Positions 44,680 to 55,583 of a stretch of 64,000 nucleotides of DNA are shown piece by piece; the first letter of the stretch is position 1, and each line of letters starts with the position of its first letter. Below the pieces are notes generated by a model. The model did not search any database. It saw only the letters and a list, made by a program, of their open reading frames with translations, and had not been told where the DNA came from. This stretch comes from a virus. Taxonomy: Duplodnaviria; Heunggongvirae; Uroviricota; Caudoviricetes. The position numbers and the translations under genes are program-made. Location of the stretch: positions 120,333 through 184,332 of IMG/VR virus record IMGVR_UViG_3300028260_000001. The stretch is one strand, 5' to 3'.

Positions 44680-46020
44680 TTATTCGTCAGCTTTCTTCAG
44701 CAGGTAGGAGTTCGAGATCGACTTCCACGACATGATCTTGTTACGTGCTTTGAATACCAGACCTTCACGGTAGGTACCTTTCTTCTGGTTAAAGGCACGT
44801 TGGCCCTCAGCCATTTCCAGGATATCCTTGACGGTAGTTTCAGCACCGATGACGAAGTTCTCATCGAATACCGGAACGTAGGTCAGACCGATTTCAGCTA
44901 CGATGCGACGAGCTTCATCCGGCAGGACTTCTTCGCTACCATTGCGGTATACCGAGAAGACGTAGTATTCGTGTTTCTCGACACCCTCGAAGTTCGATTG
45001 GATGTCAGGACCGATCAGCTCACCTTGGAGAGTGATGAACTCACCAGTACGAGCTTGGTAGGCTTTCAGCTTCTGGATGACTTCGTGTTCTTTCACGTAA
45101 CGGGTGAAGTTGTTCTCAGTTACCAGTGCAGCCTTCCGCCATTCAGGCCAGTGTATGCGTTTAACTTTGAACATCTTACGGTTACGAGCCAGGAACGAAC
45201 CAGTCCAATAACGGACTTGATCAAACAGCGACCAAGGAGCATCGTCACCCAGCGACAGCTCGTAGTTACGCGAGCAGACACCAGTACGTACACCATCGTC
45301 GTTGATGCAGAACACAGTCATCGAAGAACCATCCAGCTTGTAGGTTACTTCAAACGAGGTCTGATCTGCTTTTGCAGTAGCGAAAGCAACAGTCTTGTTC
45401 TGTACACGATCTTGATCCGACTTGGTCAGTTGGGCAGGCCATGGCATCAGAGAACCATCCAGACCTTTCAGGATACGGCGAACGAGATTACCATACCAGT
45501 CCGAGGCTACTTCGCCACCCGAACCATCACGCTCACGTTGAGGCTTAGGTTCGTACTTCAGGATACCGAGTTCCAGGGTCACGTTAGTGTCAACCGGAGT
45601 ATCCTTGAACTTCTCAGGTACTGGCACCAGCAGACCTTGCGACAGTTCCTTACGCAGCTTGATGGTTTTCAGACGGTGGTAGTTCTCACCGTTAACCCGA
45701 CGGTTATCGGAACGACGAGCTTCCAGGAAACCAAACAGTTCTACGTTGGACAGCGGGAGCAGAGAGTCAATCTCGCAGTAAATAGCGCGATCACCTTTCT
45801 TGTATTCGCCCAGCTTAACACACAGTTGCCAGCCACCAATTACAGCCAGCTCCAGTGCATCGGCATTGGGGTGCGGAACCACATCGTCAATTTCAACAAT
45901 GCGGGCCAGCTTGCGATCTTTTTCTACAACACCAAAACCTTCACGGATTGGCTTTTCTTCTACAACCACTTCGGTCATTGCATTTTCCTCGTGAGATATT
46001 GAAAGCAGATTCCTCTGCAA
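44680..46020 (-). CDS. ATP-dependent polynucleotide (RNA) ligase-like enzyme with N-terminal extension
   Basis: Nucleotidyltransferase motif I YKLDGSS (KxDGS), motif IV-like EGLVFKAR, terminal lysines; 446 aa. Confidence 0.65.
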   Translation of the reverse strand: MQRNLLSISHEENAMTEVVVEEKPIREGFGVVEKDRKLARIVEIDDVVPHPNADALELAVIGGWQLCVKLGEYKKGDRAIYCEIDSLLPLSNVELFGFLEARRSDNRRVNGENYHRLKTIKLRKELSQGLLVPVPEKFKDTPVDTNVTLELGILKYEPKPQRERDGSGGEVASDWYGNLVRRILKGLDGSLMPWPAQLTKSDQDRVQNKTVAFATAKADQTSFEVTYKLDGSSMTVFCINDDGVRTGVCSRNYELSLGDDAPWSLFDQVRYWTGSFLARNRKMFKVKRIHWPEWRKAALVTENNFTRYVKEHEVIQKLKAYQARTGEFITLQGELIGPDIQSNFEGVEKHEYYVFSVYRNGSEEVLPDEARRIVAEIGLTYVPVFDENFVIGAETTVKDILEMAEGQRAFNQKKGTYREGLVFKARNKIMSWKSISNSYLLKKADE

Positions 46021-47640: not shown

Positions 47641-49041
47641 TTAAACAGCTACGGGGGCTTCGATAGCAGGATCAGGATCGTAACCGATTACTTCCAGGTC
47701 ACGCCACGTCAGATCCAGCACCGATGTACCTACAGGTTGGTTGATCTTCAGTCGAGGCATCTCACGAGGTGTACGATAGAGCTGGGTAGTTACTTGGGCT
47801 TGATGGTTGTTGTAGATATGTGCATCACCTACAACGTGAATCAGTTCCTCACCCCAGTAGTTCAGTTCATGGGCGATCTTGTGGGTCAGCGAAGAATAGA
47901 ACGTAAGATTATACGGCGCACCCAGGAATGCATCGTTACTACGCATGTACACCAGACACTTCAATGCACGGCGTGGGATCAGGCGACTATCCATGTAACT
48001 GTGCATTTTATCTTCATCCAAATGCACACACTCGTCACGCTTTCTCACAAACGCTTCATGCGGTAGGGGTTCAGTGATTGGGTAGTCTGGAGTTTCACTT
48101 TGCTCAGGACCATGCTTCAACATCTGGATGTGTTGACTTAGAGCTTCGTTATACTGTACCTTCATGATCATCCAGCGCTCATTCACACTCAGTTCACGAG
48201 TCCAGAACTGGATGAACGAATGGCATGGTGGTAACGCTTGCTCATCGAGATAAGCTGGGTTCCATGGACACAGAATGTGACGACGAGAATCCGGATTCTC
48301 ACGTAACCCATCGATCAGATCAGTGAATTGGTCAATACGACGAGTAATAACCGCTAGTGGTTTACCAGTGACTTCACCAACCATCACAAAGCCGCGATCC
48401 AAATACGGTTGTAGTTCATCAGTATCCGCAATCAGACGAGTGTCTTCGATGCTACGGAACATCTGTCCGTATACTGCACCGAGTTCGCCTTCCACTACGG
48501 TCTGCGTTGGGACACCAACCATCTCATAGAAAATCGACCAAGCACTATGGGAATAGTCACATTCCATTCGACCGGTTTCTGCTGGATGCTTATGGTAGAT
48601 AGCGTACGCCTGACCGGGGAACACATAAACAACGAAGTGATCGTTGTCCCCTACCAATTCACCTTCTGGCTGGGCCTGTGGGTTATAGGCGCTGTGGTAT
48701 GGATCTTTCCATCCGAAGTGTGTACGGCGGTAATTGCGTTCCATCTCCTTCTGAGTAGCTGGACGATACACACCTGTACCAGCTTTAACCCATTCGTCCC
48801 AAATGCTAACATTGTTCTCTTTCAAGAACTTAACGTTAGTATCGCCAGACAACATCCAGTCTTCTTCAACGAAGCCAGTCTTCAGGTGCAGCTTTTTGGA
48901 TTGCACAGCAGCCAAGCGATTGTTGCTGATATCGTAACGACGTACTACCCCAAACTTAGATGTAGTGCCAGTGCCTGTACGATCACCTTTAGGAACGCCG
49001 TCTTGCAGGATTTCTTCAAGGTAAGAATGATATTGTTCCAT
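47641..49041 (-). CDS. thymidylate synthase family enzyme (ThyA / dNMP hydroxymethylase-like) with two large insertions
   Basis: Aligned by eye to ThyA: DRTGTGT, GDTNVKFLKENNVSIWDEW, ENPDSRRHILCPWNP, LPPCHSF(IQF), C-terminal IGYDPDPAIEAPVAV. Insertions of about 110 and 70 aa; 466 aa total. Confidence 0.75.
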   Translation of the reverse strand: MEQYHSYLEEILQDGVPKGDRTGTGTTSKFGVVRRYDISNNRLAAVQSKKLHLKTGFVEEDWMLSGDTNVKFLKENNVSIWDEWVKAGTGVYRPATQKEMERNYRRTHFGWKDPYHSAYNPQAQPEGELVGDNDHFVVYVFPGQAYAIYHKHPAETGRMECDYSHSAWSIFYEMVGVPTQTVVEGELGAVYGQMFRSIEDTRLIADTDELQPYLDRGFVMVGEVTGKPLAVITRRIDQFTDLIDGLRENPDSRRHILCPWNPAYLDEQALPPCHSFIQFWTRELSVNERWMIMKVQYNEALSQHIQMLKHGPEQSETPDYPITEPLPHEAFVRKRDECVHLDEDKMHSYMDSRLIPRRALKCLVYMRSNDAFLGAPYNLTFYSSLTHKIAHELNYWGEELIHVVGDAHIYNNHQAQVTTQLYRTPREMPRLKINQPVGTSVLDLTWRDLEVIGYDPDPAIEAPVAV

Positions 49042-49064
49042 TGTAGTCCCCTGTTAATAACACA

Positions 49065-49652
49065 CTATTGCCACAGTGCGTCATTTTTCCAGGTATCGTG
49101 GGTTGGGTTGAACAACACACAGAGGGCTTGATCATGGTGTAGTAGCAACACTGGCCATTCCGTGTTCTCACGAAAGCCCCGTTGCACAGCTACCAACGTA
49201 CTGTCCCAGATATCCAGGTCATTGCTCAGATGGATACCTGCGAGGTAATCCGGTACGCGATAAACACCATCGCCTAGTTCCAGGTATGGTTTCTTTTCAA
49301 TGTGCTTTTTCGTAAAGGTCAAACGAACTTTCGCGAATTCAACCAGCGAAAATTTCTCAACCTTCAACCCACCAGTCGAGGAGTTGAACTGGATGGTAGC
49401 CATGAGTTCATCGAAAGGCAACCGATTACGGTAGATGTTGATGTGCTTTCGATCACCATAACTGTGGAACTGAATCTGGAACCCACCTTTCGGCATAGCG
49501 CCATCAGCAGTCAACAAAATACCGCTAACGAAGTCGACGTCTTCACCAATGATATCCCGCTCAGTAATAGTAGTAGAGATATCGAAGTGAACATCCACGT
49601 CGAATTCAACCCGGTTACTTACATCCTTCTTGCAATCTTCACAGCAGCTCAT
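49065..49652 (-). CDS. hypothetical protein
   Basis: Start at MSCCEDCK with AGGAG RBS. Confidence 0.5.
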   Translation of the reverse strand: MSCCEDCKKDVSNRVEFDVDVHFDISTTITERDIIGEDVDFVSGILLTADGAMPKGGFQIQFHSYGDRKHINIYRNRLPFDELMATIQFNSSTGGLKVEKFSLVEFAKVRLTFTKKHIEKKPYLELGDGVYRVPDYLAGIHLSNDLDIWDSTLVAVQRGFRENTEWPVLLLHHDQALCVLFNPTHDTWKNDALWQ

Positions 49653-49688
49653 TTCAGCTCCTAACGACATAAAAGAAAAATAGAGGTT

Positions 49689-49706
49689 GGGGACCCGAAG
49701 GTCCCC
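49689..49706 (-). repeat. hairpin (GGGGACC-CGAA-GGTCCCC)
   Basis: Family member. Confidence 0.5.
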
Positions 49707-49712
49707 TTCCAA

Positions 49713-51539
49713 TTAGGCTTCGACTACCAGTTCATCCAGATCGAATTCTTCCATCTCATCAGCGATGGATTCTTCGATGTAGTTGCGCATGTTAGCCAGA
49801 GTAGTGGTGTGAACGAATTGACCACCCATCCACAGAGGTTTCAGTTCGCCAGACTTGGTAGCCAGATCCAGCCAATCCATGTCGACGCCTTGTGCCAGCT
49901 TGAAGTCGAAGCAATCTTCATCTACCCGCAGGAAACCACGAGCCGATTTCTTCGATGCAGCAGTCTTCGGATCTTTGTACAGTTCCACCAGACGTTCACG
50001 CACTTCACACGCGGTAGCTTTCATAGCCATACCGAAGGTGTCGCGAGTGTTATACTGATAGGTATACGAACCGATACCCAACACGACGTTCGACGAAGCG
50101 AAACCTTTGTTAGCCAGGCGCTGGAAGATCTGTTCGGTGCGTTCTACAGTGATCGAGTCACCATAGATCAGGCCGATGTATTCGTTCAGGACTTTGTAGC
50201 CCTTTCCGTTTACGTGACCACCGAAGGATTCCCACAGCGATTCAATTGCACCGATCGCTTCCGCACGAGACATCTCACGACCAATGTAACTATCAGGATC
50301 ATTCCCAATATAGTCTTGGTTGTCCAACTCGAAATAGCGATCACCGATGCGAATAGCTTCGCCATTGACTGCACACCAACCGATGTTGTACAATGCCTGT
50401 TGGAATGCTGACATCGACTCGTATTCGACCAAGGTAAAGCCAGTGATGACTTTAACAGGATCACCCGAGTCAGGACGCACTACGACTTTCGCCAGACCCA
50501 GAGCGTTCTTCTTACGTGCTTCAATCTCTACCCGCAGAGAAGGCAGTACGTTTGCAATCACACCCCAGAAGTCGAACGAGTCACATACCAGCGACACGAT
50601 ACCTTCGTTGACTTTCTTGCTGATGATCTCCAGGATGAACTCACGTTCACACTGTAGTTTCAGACGATCGATCAAACCAACGTATTGCTCGTGTGGCATT
50701 GCTGCCAGTTCAGCTGGATCAATAGCTTCCAACATGTCTTGCAGGCGCGACAGGATATTCGCAGTAGCTACGGCGTGCTCAGTAGCAGTAACCGAAGCAC
50801 CTACCAGTTCCTTATCGGAATCAGCACCGTACAGCGCTTCGAGGTAGTCGATCGACGGGATGGTATCGGTACCAGCGAATGCCAGCAGGTGACCACCGTT
50901 AGAACGACCAGCAGCTTCTGGACCAGGCATACCACGGAACGAGAAGTCGTGACCTTGGAACAGGATGTGGTCACGGTTATCACAGGTCTTGGCTGCCCAA
51001 CGTTCCATCACACGACGATATTCGTAGGCGATAGTGGCGTTGGTAATTTGCTGCCAGTTGTACGACGACAGGATGGTTTCCAGGTAGTTAACCAACCAGT
51101 AGTGTTCTTTGTGCTCTTCTTCGTTGTACAGTACCCACAGCGGAATACCGATGTTAACGCGTTTGCCTTCTTCCAGAGCCAGCACGGTTACAGGCAGGTA
51201 GCCTACGTCATGCAGTGCAGCGATCTGTTTGACCGAGATGACATCAACACCACAAGCATTGTCGAAGCGACGCTTGATCTTCTTGATGGCCTTCTCTTTT
51301 TCGACCTTGAAGAAGGTACGATCCCACAGCTCAACCAGTTCTTGCCAGGTACCGTAGATACCGAAGTTTACGACTTTGTTGTCGTAGTACGACGAAGCCG
51401 ATTTCGAGCGCATGAAGTTCTTGGCCGAACGCGGGGTGAAGTTCGAATACTTACGGGTGGTGCCTTCCGGGTACAGAGGACCGTGGCCTGGTTTGTAGAA
51501 GTCAGTACCGGTACCAGCTTGAAGCCAAAGTGCAGACAT
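49713..51539 (-). CDS. nadV: nicotinamide phosphoribosyltransferase family protein (NadV / Namat-like)
   Basis: FYKPGH, GHDFSFRGMPGPEAAG, GTDT, VVRPDSGDPVKVI align to NAMPT/NadV blocks; 608 aa. Confidence 0.8.
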   Translation of the reverse strand: MSALWLQAGTGTDFYKPGHGPLYPEGTTRKYSNFTPRSAKNFMRSKSASSYYDNKVVNFGIYGTWQELVELWDRTFFKVEKEKAIKKIKRRFDNACGVDVISVKQIAALHDVGYLPVTVLALEEGKRVNIGIPLWVLYNEEEHKEHYWLVNYLETILSSYNWQQITNATIAYEYRRVMERWAAKTCDNRDHILFQGHDFSFRGMPGPEAAGRSNGGHLLAFAGTDTIPSIDYLEALYGADSDKELVGASVTATEHAVATANILSRLQDMLEAIDPAELAAMPHEQYVGLIDRLKLQCEREFILEIISKKVNEGIVSLVCDSFDFWGVIANVLPSLRVEIEARKKNALGLAKVVVRPDSGDPVKVITGFTLVEYESMSAFQQALYNIGWCAVNGEAIRIGDRYFELDNQDYIGNDPDSYIGREMSRAEAIGAIESLWESFGGHVNGKGYKVLNEYIGLIYGDSITVERTEQIFQRLANKGFASSNVVLGIGSYTYQYNTRDTFGMAMKATACEVRERLVELYKDPKTAASKKSARGFLRVDEDCFDFKLAQGVDMDWLDLATKSGELKPLWMGGQFVHTTTLANMRNYIEESIADEMEEFDLDELVVEA

Positions 51540-51548
51540 GTTGAATCC

Positions 51549-52493
51549 TTAGAGGTGCTTGAATGCGATCAGGTTTTCAGGATTGTTCTCACGGGAAGGC
51601 AGATCCACGTGATAGGTATTCATGGTGTAAACTTTGTCGAAGACATCGGTCAACACATTGATGCCAGCCGAGAAGATGCCGTGAGTGACGTAGAGCGACA
51701 ACGAACCCAGGTCATATTGCTTCAGGACCTTAGCGAGCTCAGTGAAGGTACGGCCACCATCACAGATGTCATCAACGATCAACAGTTCTTCGCCGCGGAG
51801 TTCATCGAGTTCCAGAACTTCTTCACCGCAAACAAAGCTGTCTACAGTAGTGCGCAGGATCTTGCCGTCACGAGTGTTACGTACCTTGTTAGCGTACACA
51901 ACACCTTTGAAGCCGAATTCCTTTGCCAGCGATTCGACTTTCTTACGTGCACCAGCATCTGGAGCAACCAAGATGGTCTTAGCTGGGTTGATTCGATCGA
52001 CACTGCCGATATCTAGCATGTGCTTGCGGAACAGATCATTCAGCGAGAACACACGAGCATTGTTCAGCACCGAACCAATCACGTCAGAGTGAGGGTCTGT
52101 CAGAACAACACGCTCAACATTCAAACTGTTGATGACGTGGGCAAACGCCTTAGCTGAATTCGCTTCACCTGGATTGCACACACGGTCTTGACGAGCGTAT
52201 GGCATGTAGCCGATGTCCAGAGTAATCTGTGGGTTAGCTACGGTCGCGTTTTCACGGATAGCGTTAACAGCCATGATCAAAGACCAAGCAGCAGCTGCGT
52301 CAGGTAGAGCAGCTACAATGCGATAAGTCTCGCCTTTATACCAGACACCCTTGCGACCATGTACATCCTCACGTGGGATAGATACGTTCACTTCACCCGC
52401 AGGGAACATTCGCCCATCGCGGATTTCGGTAGGGAAGGACTGGGAGTGACCCAATCCCTCCTGAGTAACGATCAACTTCAGATTCTGTGTCAT
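51549..52493 (-). CDS. prs: ribose-phosphate pyrophosphokinase family protein (Prs / Adps-like)
   Basis: GEVNVSIPRED, YMPYARQDR, LIVDDICDGGRTF (PRPP-binding loop). Confidence 0.8.
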   Translation of the reverse strand: MTQNLKLIVTQEGLGHSQSFPTEIRDGRMFPAGEVNVSIPREDVHGRKGVWYKGETYRIVAALPDAAAAWSLIMAVNAIRENATVANPQITLDIGYMPYARQDRVCNPGEANSAKAFAHVINSLNVERVVLTDPHSDVIGSVLNNARVFSLNDLFRKHMLDIGSVDRINPAKTILVAPDAGARKKVESLAKEFGFKGVVYANKVRNTRDGKILRTTVDSFVCGEEVLELDELRGEELLIVDDICDGGRTFTELAKVLKQYDLGSLSLYVTHGIFSAGINVLTDVFDKVYTMNTYHVDLPSRENNPENLIAFKHL

Positions 52494-52834
52494 GCAGCTT
52501 CCTTTTGTTCCATTGCAAAGTCGGCATCGAAAAGCAACTCGACATCACCGAGCTTCGTTTTGATGTTGCTATCAGCTTCGTACCGGCAAGTCTCCAGATC
52601 CATAACCAGATCTGTTTCCTGATCACCACAGCGTACCAGGAAACGTGCAACCTTGCCAAGTTCAACACCACGAGCGATAACTTCAACTTCGTTCGTGAGT
52701 ACATGTTCGCCATGATAAGCAGCAACGAACTTAACCGAAACCACTTTCGCTCCTTCAGTAACAAAGAAGCGATCTTTGTGGTAAGTCATTTCATCAGGCA
52801 GTACGCGGAAAAAGTGATGCAGTTTTGGTTCCAT
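52490..52834 (-). CDS. hypothetical protein (coupled to prs-like gene)
   Basis: ATGA overlap with the downstream start. Confidence 0.45.
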   Translation of the reverse strand: MEPKLHHFFRVLPDEMTYHKDRFFVTEGAKVVSVKFVAAYHGEHVLTNEVEVIARGVELGKVARFLVRCGDQETDLVMDLETCRYEADSNIKTKLGDVELLFDADFAMEQKEAA

Positions 52835-52843
52835 GATATCCTC

Positions 52844-54220
52844 TTACACAGCTGGTTCGCCCACAGCTTCAATTGGTACCGCACCACGTTTAGCGGGTGC
52901 TTTCTTTACTGGGGCAGGTTCTGGTCTCAATGCGTAGTTCTCAGCGATATAGCTGTCGCTGAGAGTACCGAGATGTTCGATGAACGCACTGGCGTCATGT
53001 GGATGTTCCGTAAACAGGCCGGACAATACTGCAGCCGCCGTATCCGGGAACATTACATTACGGTCGTAAGTAGGATTATCATACATCGCATCGATGTAGC
53101 GCTTAACTTCAGCGTCTTTCAAGAATGGTACGTGGATGTTTTTATCCACACGAGAAGGACGATATACAGCTGGGTCGATCTTCTCGATGTGGTTGGTGGT
53201 CATCACGATGATCAGGTCTTCGAGTTCCACTACACCCTGCAAGATGTTGAGGAACGTGGACAGCTGAATATCACAGTCCATGAAGGCCAGTTCTTTAGCG
53301 ATGCCATCATCACCCATTTCGAGACGCTTCTCAGTCGGTTCAGCTGCTACACGACGGTGCAGCGACTTAACGTCATCGAAGTCTTCAATGCAGAGCATGT
53401 CCCCAGGCGAAAGCTGGGAGATCAGTTTCTGCAATGCACGACCATCGGTAGCCAAGTTAATGAAGTGTACGTCTCGTTTGAATCTACGAGCCGCAGCTTT
53501 AATTAACGAGGTTTTACCCGTACCAGGTGGACCTTCGAGAATCACGGTGTGTTTGTACGCACGACCACGCTTACGGTACCACTGTTCGTTGTCGATGAAT
53601 CGCTGAATCGAACCGAAGAACTCTTCCTCAACGGTTGGATCGATTACGAGAATCTCACCTTGGTTCAGCTTGAGCTTACCCGTGATAGACCAACGACCTT
53701 CTTCTGGAGCATAGATCCGCACAGCATTTTTATCTTTCTTGATGCGGAACTCTTCTACCAGTCGTTCGAATGGTTCTGTACTACGACCGAACGTATAAAG
53801 AGTGAACTCTTCTTTTTCAATGTCCGTACCTGAAGATGCCAGGCGTTGTACATTGAACCAGAAGTAACGCCCTTCAAAGAAGAACCAGTGGAATCCCATA
53901 CCCGGACCGAATGCAGGATCGTCACGATCAAACGTTACACGCCGGTTACGATCGTACTTCGCCCACTTGGTGCGAGCAAACCACTTCATAAACTCAGCGT
54001 AGTTATGCAGGTCCATCGAGTACGACCCAGCACGGGTAAACGTCATCGATGCCACGGTGTTACGACGAATGAAGTTCCAGATGGTCTGCGGGATAGTTCG
54101 ACCGAACCAACCTAATACGCCCATCAGACCCAAGGTCATAAAACCTTTAACCGTCGAATCGCCAGAACTCAGCAATTCGAGGGTATTATGGAAGAACGAC
54201 AAAACCTCATTAACAATCAT
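52844..54220 (-). CDS. BCS1-like AAA+ ATPase with N-terminal membrane anchor
   Basis: Walker A GPPGTGKTS, Walker B LCIEDFDD, MTTNHIEKIDPAVYRPSRVD matching the BCS1 TNYIDRLDPALIRPGRVD. Confidence 0.75.
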   Translation of the reverse strand: MIVNEVLSFFHNTLELLSSGDSTVKGFMTLGLMGVLGWFGRTIPQTIWNFIRRNTVASMTFTRAGSYSMDLHNYAEFMKWFARTKWAKYDRNRRVTFDRDDPAFGPGMGFHWFFFEGRYFWFNVQRLASSGTDIEKEEFTLYTFGRSTEPFERLVEEFRIKKDKNAVRIYAPEEGRWSITGKLKLNQGEILVIDPTVEEEFFGSIQRFIDNEQWYRKRGRAYKHTVILEGPPGTGKTSLIKAAARRFKRDVHFINLATDGRALQKLISQLSPGDMLCIEDFDDVKSLHRRVAAEPTEKRLEMGDDGIAKELAFMDCDIQLSTFLNILQGVVELEDLIIVMTTNHIEKIDPAVYRPSRVDKNIHVPFLKDAEVKRYIDAMYDNPTYDRNVMFPDTAAAVLSGLFTEHPHDASAFIEHLGTLSDSYIAENYALRPEPAPVKKAPAKRGAVPIEAVGEPAV

Positions 54221-54894
54221 CAGTTAAGCCCAGGTTGGATTGTAACGACACTGTCCCAGTTTTCACCGGCAGCTTGTACGTATTCGTAGAATGCATCAAT
54301 TGCTTCGGGAGAAGATATGTGGTTCACCCCTTCTTTGGTTGGTTCCAGCTTCTGGTCTGTAAGAGTCCAGTGGAACTCTTCGTTGTCGTACATCAGGGCG
54401 AAAACGTCATAACGAACATTTAGTACAACAGTTACTTCGAGCAGGTTAGTGAAGCCAACCTTGTTCGTATTAACACCCACGACAGTCGCATCGACATATG
54501 GCTGGAGCTGCTCGTAGCTGTATGCACCAGCGAGTTTGGAAAGGCGGAGACCCCAATCCATAACTTGGTCCATTAGTCCACGTTCAACCATGTCCACAAA
54601 CGGTACCATGTCGTTACCAACTTGCTCCATATTCGGAGCATGTGTATATTGACGAGTACTAACATCCATGTGGTATAGGTGTCCGTTATTCTGGCGGTGC
54701 ACCGGAAGGAAGTTGAAGACGATTCGATGGAGCTCTTCCGAGTGTACCAGAGTTTCCTCAGGGCACCAGATCAAGTCCTTATAGAACATGTCGTTAAGGG
54801 CGTAAAGATCCACGGGTGTGAACCGTGGAGTCTTTGCCATGAAATCGAATACCGCTGTCTTACGTACAGCAGGAACCAGACGATCCAGGTTCAC
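54220..54894 (-). CDS. hypothetical protein
   Basis: 224 aa; ATGA overlap with neighbours. Confidence 0.5.
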   Translation of the reverse strand: MNLDRLVPAVRKTAVFDFMAKTPRFTPVDLYALNDMFYKDLIWCPEETLVHSEELHRIVFNFLPVHRQNNGHLYHMDVSTRQYTHAPNMEQVGNDMVPFVDMVERGLMDQVMDWGLRLSKLAGAYSYEQLQPYVDATVVGVNTNKVGFTNLLEVTVVLNVRYDVFALMYDNEEFHWTLTDQKLEPTKEGVNHISSPEAIDAFYEYVQAAGENWDSVVTIQPGLN

Positions 54895-55583
54895 GCTTTA
54901 CCCCCTTGGATAACACGCAGGTGTGGCGGACATACACGACGTTTACGTGGAGTAGGCAGCGAGAAGCCACCAACGTCGCCGAAGTCGAGGAGTGGTTTGG
55001 GTTGTTCTTTTGGTGCAGGTGCAGCAGGACGTTGTGCCAGAGGCTTGCGTTTCATCAACTCTTGAAGCGTCGGCAGTTGATTGCCGTCTTCATCATGCGT
55101 CAGTGGTTCTACGCCATGCACTGCGTAAGCACCATCGGGCAGTGTGTCACCTTCCATATCACCCATCGGACCTTGCATACCACTTTGGGCCAGAAGGTCT
55201 TGCAGTTCTTCACGGAGTTGAATACCCAGCAGTTCACGCTCGACATTCGGGATAGGCAGGAAGCTTTGAGTCGAATCGGAAGTCGGAACGATGAAACCCA
55301 GTACAGCAGCGTACGGAACTTCTACGAAAACGTCTTGACGATTGTAGCCACAGTTGAAGCTGAAGTTTTCTTCATTGTAGCTGAAATTCTTGGTTGCGTT
55401 TGCAGCGATGTTCAGTTTGATCTGATACAGCCCGTTTACTTCAGGTTCCATGATACCGACATCAAACATGCGGGCATCAGCAACCAACAGGATACGACGT
55501 GGCATATCCATGTCGATGAACCACTGGATCATGGTGTTCATTACGGCACGGGTCATGTTCAGCTCAGGTGCGGCTTGCAGCAT
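54891..55583 (-). CDS. SspB-like ClpXP adaptor homologue with C-terminal tail ending LRVIQGGKA
   Basis: QIKLNIAANATKNFSYNEENFSFNCGYNRQDVFVEVPYAAVLGFIV aligns to the E. coli SspB block QIVLNIAPRAVGNLELANDEVRFNARFGGIPRQVSVPLAAVLAIYA. N-terminal IQWFIDMDMPRRILLVAD matches YEWLLDNQLTPHLVVDV. Confidence 0.6.
   Translation of the reverse strand: MLQAAPELNMTRAVMNTMIQWFIDMDMPRRILLVADARMFDVGIMEPEVNGLYQIKLNIAANATKNFSYNEENFSFNCGYNRQDVFVEVPYAAVLGFIVPTSDSTQSFLPIPNVERELLGIQLREELQDLLAQSGMQGPMGDMEGDTLPDGAYAVHGVEPLTHDEDGNQLPTLQELMKRKPLAQRPAAPAPKEQPKPLLDFGDVGGFSLPTPRKRRVCPPHLRVIQGGKA

Follow-up and report, generated by a model that had tools for sequence, protein, structure and literature searches.

A Prs-like and Nampt-like gene pair in a jumbo phage genome

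The 64,000-nucleotide stretch of viral DNA analysed here (the window; positions 120,333 to 184,332 of IMG/VR record IMGVR_UViG_3300028260_000001) carries, at 49713-52493, two adjacent genes whose products resemble phosphoribosyl pyrophosphate (PRPP) synthetase (Prs) and nicotinamide phosphoribosyltransferase (Nampt or NadV). By family signatures, phylogeny and gene order, this pair very probably constitutes a functional operon of NARP1, the phage NAD+ reconstitution pathway made up of the enzymes Adps and Namat. A first-pass annotation, made from the letters and their open reading frames (ORFs), had given exactly these coordinates and had listed landmark motifs, all of which we found in the ORF translations: YARQDR and LIVDDICDGGRTF in the 314-amino-acid (aa) Prs-like ORF, and GHDFSFRG, GTDT and RPDSGDP in the 608-aa Nampt-like ORF. 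On sequence grounds, these motifs reflect strong homology and not chance. Pfam searches recovered Pribosyltran/Pribosyltran_N domains in the 314-aa protein and NAPRTase (E 9e-31) in the 608-aa protein.

Every gene of the surrounding region lies on the minus strand. Positions 49000-54300 align along their whole length with the 307-kb Pseudomonas phage D6 (82% nucleotide identity), and weaker nucleotide matches were obtained to phages Psa21, RVTF4, PA1C and HPP-Temi. The source of the window is a phiKZ-related Pseudomonas jumbo phage of ~305 kb, closest to D6. D6 and Psa21 keep the gene order of the window, and RVTF4 does so up to the end of its fetched record. Within that extent, these three Tepukevirus-like phages share a neighbourhood of an AAA ATPase gene, a 114-aa gene, adps, namat, a hairpin, a gene of ~195 aa and thyA (Table 1). 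The orthologues of D6 are 87% (Adps) and 89% (Namat) identical to those of the window, and those of Psa21 43% and 73%, respectively.

The genes are tightly spaced. Nine nucleotides separate the stop codon of the AAA ATPase gene from the ATG of the 114-aa gene, the TGA of the latter overlaps the adps ATG in an ATGA (GCATGACA), and a further 9 nt lie between the adps stop and the namat ATG. By direct reading, a GGGGACC-UUCG-GGUCCCC stem-loop with a U-rich tract behind it lies 7 nt past the namat stop. We folded the four orthologous regions and observed that the hairpin forms again in D6, Psa21 and RVTF4, with compensatory changes in the stem (GGGUCCC/GGGACCC in Psa21) and the same UUCG loop. A consensus terminator scan of the region did not flag this hairpin because its U-tract begins more than 2 nt past the stem; conserved as it is, it is the probable terminator of the operon. 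The 195-aa gene, 3' of the hairpin, has its own AGGAG ribosome-binding site.

Table 1 Features of the region around the adps-namat pair, listed in transcription order
Feature	Position in window	Strand	Remarks
SspB-like gene	54891-55583	-	First in transcription order; Pfam E 5e-4
224-aa gene	54220-54894	-	Second in transcription order
BCS1_N + AAA ATPase, assigned as PHIKZ286 orthologue, 458 aa	52844-54220	-	Pfam: BCS1_N 2e-15, AAA 2e-13
114-aa all-beta protein gene	52490-52834	-	From ORF list; stop overlaps adps ATG
adps, predicted ADP-ribose diphosphokinase (Prs-like), 314 aa	51549-52493	-	Motifs, Pfam, tree, model scores
namat, predicted nicotinamide ADP-ribose transferase (Nampt-like), 608 aa	49713-51539	-	Motifs, Pfam, structure matches
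Stem-loop and U-rich tract, probable operon terminator	49671-49706	-	Read from sequence; conserved fold
195-aa gene	49065-49652	-	3' of hairpin; ORF-list reading 49065-49712 (215 aa)
thyA with large insertion, 466 aa	47641-49041	-	After the 195-aa gene; followed by several small genes
Rnl-type RNA ligase gene (PHA02142 OB + RNA_ligase domains)	44680-46020	-	~4 kb downstream of the NARP1 pair

The 608-aa protein carries a Namat-type SCH motif

A pair of this kind might instead serve canonical salvage. The Prs-like enzyme would then make PRPP from ribose-5-phosphate, the NadV-like enzyme would make nicotinamide mononucleotide (NMN) from PRPP and nicotinamide, and an NMN adenylyltransferase of the host or from a distant phage gene would complete a NARP2-like pathway or a general boosting of nucleotides and NAD. 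We regard this as highly improbable. It agrees with the GenBank labels of the pair in D6, Psa21 and PS119XW (ribose-phosphate pyrophosphokinase and nicotinamide phosphoribosyltransferase) and with the NCBIfam model NF006629, on which the 608-aa protein scored 422 bits against a cut-off of 405. However, the validated Namat of phage ICP1 also exceeds this cut-off (435 bits), so NF006629 does not discriminate between the two enzyme types.

We compared the 608-aa protein with solved structures using phmmer against the Protein Data Bank (PDB). The top matches were 9W5X and 9W5W (E 6e-106), both of which are Namat of phage SPbetaL1 (PMC12774641), the Adps + Namat system described by Osterman et al. 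(bioRxiv 10.1101/2024.02.11.579819); the rat, mouse and human NAMPT chains matched at E ~4e-38. SPbetaL1 Namat grips the adenine of ADP-ribose pyrophosphate (ADPR-PP) or NAD+ with a 'selectivity clamp' that consists of two parts, the SCH motif and the SCL loop (PMC12774641). Namat is defined by the SCH motif, GSXPhiXPhiXPhiTRD, in which the third and seventh positions are aromatic (PMC12774641). It is present in the 608-aa protein as GSYTYQYNTRD at residues 490-500, with Y492 and Y496 as the aromatics, and reads GSFTYQYNTRD in SPbetaL1. At the same position rat NAMPT has GSGG.LLQKLTRD, and the mouse and human chains are likewise. The NadVs of phage GAP161, Phaeobacter phage MD18 and Sinorhizobium phage phiM7 have GGGLLQxVTRD-like sequences there, a type that is absent from the 608-aa protein. 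The presence of the Namat clamp motif and the lack of the GGGLLQ type both argue against a canonical NadV.

Agreement with SPbetaL1 extends to the catalytic core. All 22 positions that we mapped are identical or conservative in the 608-aa protein, including every reported NAD+ contact and the catalytic His. The core residues D13, Y15, F189, R192, D215, H245, R306, D308, G360/D361, G390/S391 and R399 of SPbetaL1 correspond, all identically, to D13, Y15, F199, R202, D225, H255, R355, D357, G460/D461, G490/S491 and R499. Canonical NadVs of NARP2 type such as those of MD18 and phiM7 also have the Nampt fold and catalytic residues, but they are 23-30% identical to the 608-aa protein, lack an adjoining Prs-like gene and adjoin a NadM/Nudix-type or cytidylyltransferase gene, the NARP2 arrangement with its NMN adenylyltransferase partner. 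A tblastn search of the 608-aa protein against 50,697 phage records was bimodal, with Namat-type matches at 1e-67 to 1e-119 and the NadV-type matches that we examined at 1e-22 or weaker.

The second-closest structure, 9KE8/9KEO (E 2e-91; 'nicotinamide phosphoribosyltransferase'), was not used as a comparator; we found no citing paper. Its SCH-equivalent, GAQTYQRNTRD, is intermediate, being neither clearly Namat nor clearly Nampt. A tblastn search of its sequence against the phage collection gave at most 58% identity, and no phage there encodes it.

The 608-aa protein is longer than SPbetaL1 Namat (491 aa), with three insertions, two of them at ~262-297 and 368-424, and a tail of acidic residues at 591-608. 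Felixounavirus Namat, represented by phage ekra, is inserted at the same two places, and Bas63, of the same genus as ekra, has a NARP1 validated in vivo; the insertions are therefore no argument against function. In ekra an HNH homing endonuclease gene lies between adps and namat (L005:4370-4861), and the Namat of phage phiTE is likewise split by an HNH gene. We infer that the 608-aa protein is a Namat, predicted to convert ADPR-PP and nicotinamide to NAD+ in preference to using PRPP.

The 314-aa protein belongs to the Adps clade

The Adps of Vibrio phage ICP1, for which structures and mutagenesis are available (PMC13586617), is ~33-36% identical to the 314-aa protein. In ICP1 Adps, ADP-ribose (ADPR) sits in the conserved PRPS acceptor groove, the ATP donor is held by a remodelled PP loop and a beta-hairpin, and the C-terminal alpha11-alpha12 helices and allosteric sites of Prs have been lost; the PP-loop region is conserved across Adps homologues (PMC13586617). 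We aligned 81 Adps-type sequences, comprising validated proteins or close relatives of these (ICP1, SPbetaL1, FADO and the Felix-like protein), the Pseudomonas jumbo phage proteins and Namat neighbours in IMG/VR loci, with 8 gammaproteobacterial Prs sequences.

The alignment separates the 314-aa protein from Prs at several sites. Its PP loop, DDICDGGRTF, is the majority Adps consensus (DDMIDTGGTL in Prs), F250 is Phe in 81 of the 81 Adps sequences and Leu in Prs, and I212 is Ile in 68 of the 81 and Gln in Prs. It has DPHS, as in Adps, where Prs has DLHA, and its RF loop is shortened, reading RQDRVC-NPGE compared with RQDRRVRSARVP in Prs. No counterpart of the C-terminal MLAEAIRRISNEESISAMF of Prs (alpha11-alpha12) was found in the alignment of the 314-aa protein; ICP1 Adps likewise lacks these helices. 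Catalytic and acceptor residues of ICP1 (K185, R87, H121, D161, D212 and D213) are present as K203, R101, H135, D179, D241 and D242, the Lys being K162 in SPbetaL1; these residues are common to Prs and are thus necessary but not discriminating. The PP-loop core VDDICDG and F221 of ICP1 are also shared. The remodelled donor site of ICP1 comprises C215-S220, F221 and I194, the last two corresponding to F250 and I212. ICP1 differs in having AAS at PP-loop residues 218-220, where the window protein has GRT, and in lacking both the N-terminal extension of the window protein and an 8-9-residue insertion in its beta-hairpin. SPbetaL1 Adps is more distant, at ~28% identity, and has a divergent PP loop (DDLSSFGGTF).

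Curated models gave the same picture. The 314-aa protein scored 34-87 bits on the Prs equivalog models, whose cut-offs are 296-536, and 99.5 bits on TIGR01251 (cut-off 113), for which the validated ICP1 Adps has essentially the same sub-threshold score (98.0 bits). It matched phrog_619 at 247 bits. A protein that falls below every Prs cut-off, carries the donor loop of Adps and lacks the C-terminal helices of Prs is hard to reconcile with a canonical Prs partner.

In a neighbour-joining tree of the 81 Adps and 8 Prs sequences, rooted on Prs and bootstrapped, the 314-aa protein grouped with D6, Psa21, an IMG/VR locus of the same lineage (L010) and PS119XW, within a crown group shared with ICP1 and the Felix-like protein, SPbetaL1 and FADO branching at the base. 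Bootstrap support was 100 for Adps versus Prs, 99 for the Pseudomonas jumbo phage subclade and 71 for the group of the window, ICP1 and Felix-like proteins to the exclusion of SPbetaL1, FADO and Prs. Comparison with characterised Adps and Namat by alignment and, for the 314-aa protein, by phylogeny, the check proposed in the first-pass annotation, placed both proteins with these enzymes and not with housekeeping Prs and NadV. The 314-aa protein is, we infer, an Adps, predicted to catalyse ADPR + ATP -> ADPR-PP + AMP.

Two observations concern the evolution of the family. Adps diverges much faster than Namat in this lineage: the window and Psa21 proteins are 43% identical in the case of Adps, 73% in that of Namat and 69% in that of the AAA ATPase. 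In addition, the 547-position profile phrog_12872 (nicotinamide phosphoribosyl transferase) matches Adps at positions 42-222 and Namat at positions 260-534; this implies that phages also have a family of fused Adps-Namat proteins.

The pair as a probable NARP1 operon

Gene order provided a further line of evidence. Of the 80 closest IMG/VR loci, 77 have an Adps-type gene that shares the strand of namat and, with one exception, lies upstream of it; in the remaining three namat touches the end of the contig. These 80 loci were fetched with a Namat alignment, are all Namat-type and include no negative controls; the NadVs of NARP2 type were obtained separately. The order of adps followed by namat is also that of SPbetaL1, although SPbetaL1 is a temperate Bacillus siphovirus and the phage described here is a lytic-type Pseudomonas jumbo phage. 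According to the NARP1 discovery paper, the system occurs in 859 phages (4.3%), and 97% of Adps-clade genes have a Namat homologue beside them. In PS119XW and PA1C the pair is found elsewhere than in the neighbourhood of the window and without the 114-aa gene. It follows an RtcB-type RNA ligase gene directly in PS119XW (L009:3683-5887).

A canonical NadV would need an NMN adenylyltransferase. Using phage NadM/Nudix and cytidylyltransferase proteins as tblastn queries, we detected no match to such a partner within the 64 kb that the window covers of the ~305-kb genome, a result that also speaks against the canonical pair. The earlier identification of the adjacent pair as a NARP1 module agrees with the published discriminating motifs, with the phylogeny, with the cut-offs of curated models and with the order of the genes. 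The first-pass annotation had also held that sequence alone cannot distinguish Prs and NadV from Adps and Namat. This view is outdated: the SCH motif and the PP-loop and C-terminal signatures of Adps, described in structure papers that appeared in 2026, discriminate between them (PMC12774641, PMC13586617), and the pair carries these signatures.

Several observations weigh against the assignment to NARP1. The SCL is a variable loop that contributes one further stacking residue to the clamp; its third residue is Arg, Lys or Tyr, and the fourth stacks if the third is Lys or Tyr (PMC12774641). In the 608-aa protein the third residue, Lys40, is an allowed one (Arg40 in SPbetaL1), but the fourth is Asn, which is not aromatic, Phe comes fifth, and SPbetaL1 has a loop that is shorter by 9 residues. 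In ICP1 Adps the adenine of ADPR is stacked by F18 of the neighbouring protomer and by F92 (PMC13586617). The former is conserved as F30 in the 314-aa protein, but the latter is replaced by C106; most members of the clade (50 of 81) have Cys here and Phe is not family-wide. Pairwise BLAST scores of the 314-aa protein against the Adps of SPbetaL1 and FADO (63 and 61 bits) are no better than that against Escherichia coli Prs (65 bits), so its membership rests on the tree, on its similarity to the ICP1 and Felix-like Adps (121-130 bits) and on the signatures. The tree is itself limited, as it was built by a distance method, its key internal node has 71% support and its outgroup consists of gammaproteobacterial Prs alone. 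The outgroup is this narrow, with no Pseudomonas, Gram-positive or archaeal Prs, because a scan of genome contigs with E. coli Prs yielded just gammaproteobacterial sequences (at least 80% identity). Finally, Namat keeps PRPP-dependent NMN synthesis in vitro, at about half the PRPP activity of human Nampt (PMC12774641). This residual activity would suit the canonical pair, and by analogy the 608-aa protein may have some canonical PRPP activity.

Homology to the SPbetaL1, FADO, Bas63, ICP1 and DyoEdafos systems allows the catalytic activities and the anti-defence phenotype of the NARP1 pair to be predicted. A host NADase effector (SIR2, TIR, SEFIR and similar) would split NAD+ into ADPR and nicotinamide. 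Adps would then move the beta,gamma-pyrophosphate of ATP onto ADPR's distal ribose to give ADPR-PP, and Namat would swap the pyrophosphate of ADPR-PP for nicotinamide to give NAD+. The phage would in this way replicate despite NAD+-depleting immunity.

NARP1 lets phages survive NAD+-depleting defences such as Thoeris, DSR1/2, SIR2-HerA and SEFIR. Assigning it to a D6-like phage corrects the generic 'Prs/NadV' annotation of public relatives and would predict which host defences can be beaten, which is useful when phages are selected for use against Pseudomonas syringae or P. aeruginosa. The supplementary tables of the NARP1 discovery paper already contain the homologues in Psa21, PA1C and PS119XW, entered there as Adps and 'Adps-associated' Namat. 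The lineage is therefore part of the published NARP1 catalogue and the window is a further example of a known and widespread system; with such close relatives already catalogued as carriers, understanding of the pathway is unchanged.

A coupled 114-aa gene and an upstream AAA ATPase

The 114-aa ORF and the BCS1-like AAA ATPase gene had been put forward in the first-pass annotation as possible extra components of the pathway. The arrangement described there was accurate, in that the 114-aa ORF is coupled to adps through the ATGA overlap and the AAA gene lies directly upstream with a gap of 9 nt; a role of the AAA ATPase in NARP1 did not hold. The ATPase matched phrog_7485 (369 bits), and its homologues occur in 163 phage records, mostly of phiKZ-like jumbo phages. 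The PA1C gene is annotated as 'similar to PHIKZ286' and is located 36 kb from the NARP1 pair of that phage. In phiKZ, AntiDefenseFinder detects Tad1 alone and hence no NARP1 (PMC11724313). This NARP1-independent distribution rules out the ATPase as a component of the pathway. By its homologues we assign it as the orthologue of PHIKZ286 (phiKZ gp286), an upstream neighbour outside NARP1. PHIKZ286 is reported to crosslink with the stalk of the ribosome (PMC10449902).

Two genes upstream of the ATPase lies a gene for an SspB-like protein, which has an adaptor-type fold; the diverged relative L175 has a precomputed SspB match. The order of SspB-like gene, middle gene and AAA gene is kept in diverged relatives (L175:679-3403), and the SspB-like protein and the ATPase could be an adaptor and unfoldase pair.

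A wider NARP1, in which the 114-aa protein, alone or together with the AAA ATPase, is a genuine accessory of the pathway, appears unlikely to us, and the distribution of the ATPase counts against the broader version. Such an accessory might supply Adps with a modified ADPR species, sequester a signal derived from ADPR, or act in the regulation or assembly of Adps. For the 114-aa protein itself, the ATGA overlap points to coupling with adps in translation, homologues down to ~38% identity always lie between the AAA gene and adps, and the family has many invariant charged residues. There is also precedent for extra genes in NARP1 operons. The NARP1-AP operons, with the Macro-domain phosphatase Adpp, and the RyDEP operons likewise have a small extra gene in, or coupled to, the NARP1 operon; however, neither a Macro nor a RyR domain is present in the 114-aa protein, which shows no detectable resemblance to either. 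Neither it nor the ORF downstream of the pair (as the 215-aa reading) matched Pfam. No accessory with a Macro or RyR (PF02026) domain was found in the operon: a phage Macro protein used as the tblastn query gave no match, and fold searches recovered neither a Macro nor a RyR fold, nor any known fold for the 114-aa protein. The weak structural neighbours of the 114-aa protein are uncharacterised small proteins of jumbo phages.

The family is small and its distribution narrow. It comprises 11 clusters among 5.8 billion proteins, and a profile search of 1.8 billion representatives returned five small-protein representatives. Four of these five were examined for context and all are encoded directly after the AAA gene; adps comes next after the 114-aa homologue, or after an extra gene of ~100 aa, wherever the contig reaches that far. 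As both neighbours are fixed wherever the gene occurs, synteny assigns it to neither of them. The family is limited to one phage lineage. PS119XW and PA1C do not have the gene, and among the 80 closest NARP1 loci it occurs in L010 alone, which is a member of the lineage. This restriction argues against an accessory role.

We also considered the Adps insertion as a possible link. The 8-9 residues lie at ~217-230 in the catalytic beta-hairpin and occur in the window, D6, Psa21, L010 and L175-L177, that is, in exactly the lineage with the 114-aa gene; they are absent from PS119XW, which has neither the insertion nor the gene, and from ICP1, the Felix-like protein and SPbetaL1. This amounts to a weak hint, as shared ancestry would explain both the insertion and the synteny equally well. 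It is doubtful, if conceivable, that the 114-aa protein represents a so far unrecognised third member of the NARP1 system of jumbo phages, which would act by binding or converting ADPR derivatives or through regulation of Adps. Such a role is compatible with the pair being NARP1, and if true would widen the range of NAD+-targeting defences that are countered, as Adpp and RyDEP do elsewhere.

The extra gene of ~100 aa is found in diverged relatives between the 114-aa homologue and adps (L175:3679-3981, L176:729-1013 and L177:4056-4358). It does not occur in the window, D6 or Psa21, and its product is unrelated to the 114-aa protein by BLAST; hhalign of the two small-protein families also gave no relationship (probability 0.2%).

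Genes downstream of the operon

The gene that follows the hairpin starts with TTG in the ORF list (215 aa). The ATG at 49652, after the AGGAG, is the likelier start, and the resulting 195-aa reading (MSCCEDC...) agrees with the annotations of D6 and Psa21. Fold searches with the 195-aa protein gave no match; it is lineage-specific and its identical sequence occurs on 26 contigs.

The thymidylate synthase encoded next has 466 aa compared with the usual ~265 aa. In the Pfam match, residues 2-281 cover just profile positions 1-154, which indicates that a large insertion lies inside the protein. D6, Psa21, RVTF4, PS119XW and L176 also have the long form, with 474-479 aa where a length is stated. 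Farther downstream lies the Rnl-type RNA ligase gene of Table 1. With this ligase in the window and one of RtcB type in PS119XW, RNA-repair and NAD+-repair genes may tend to neighbour each other.

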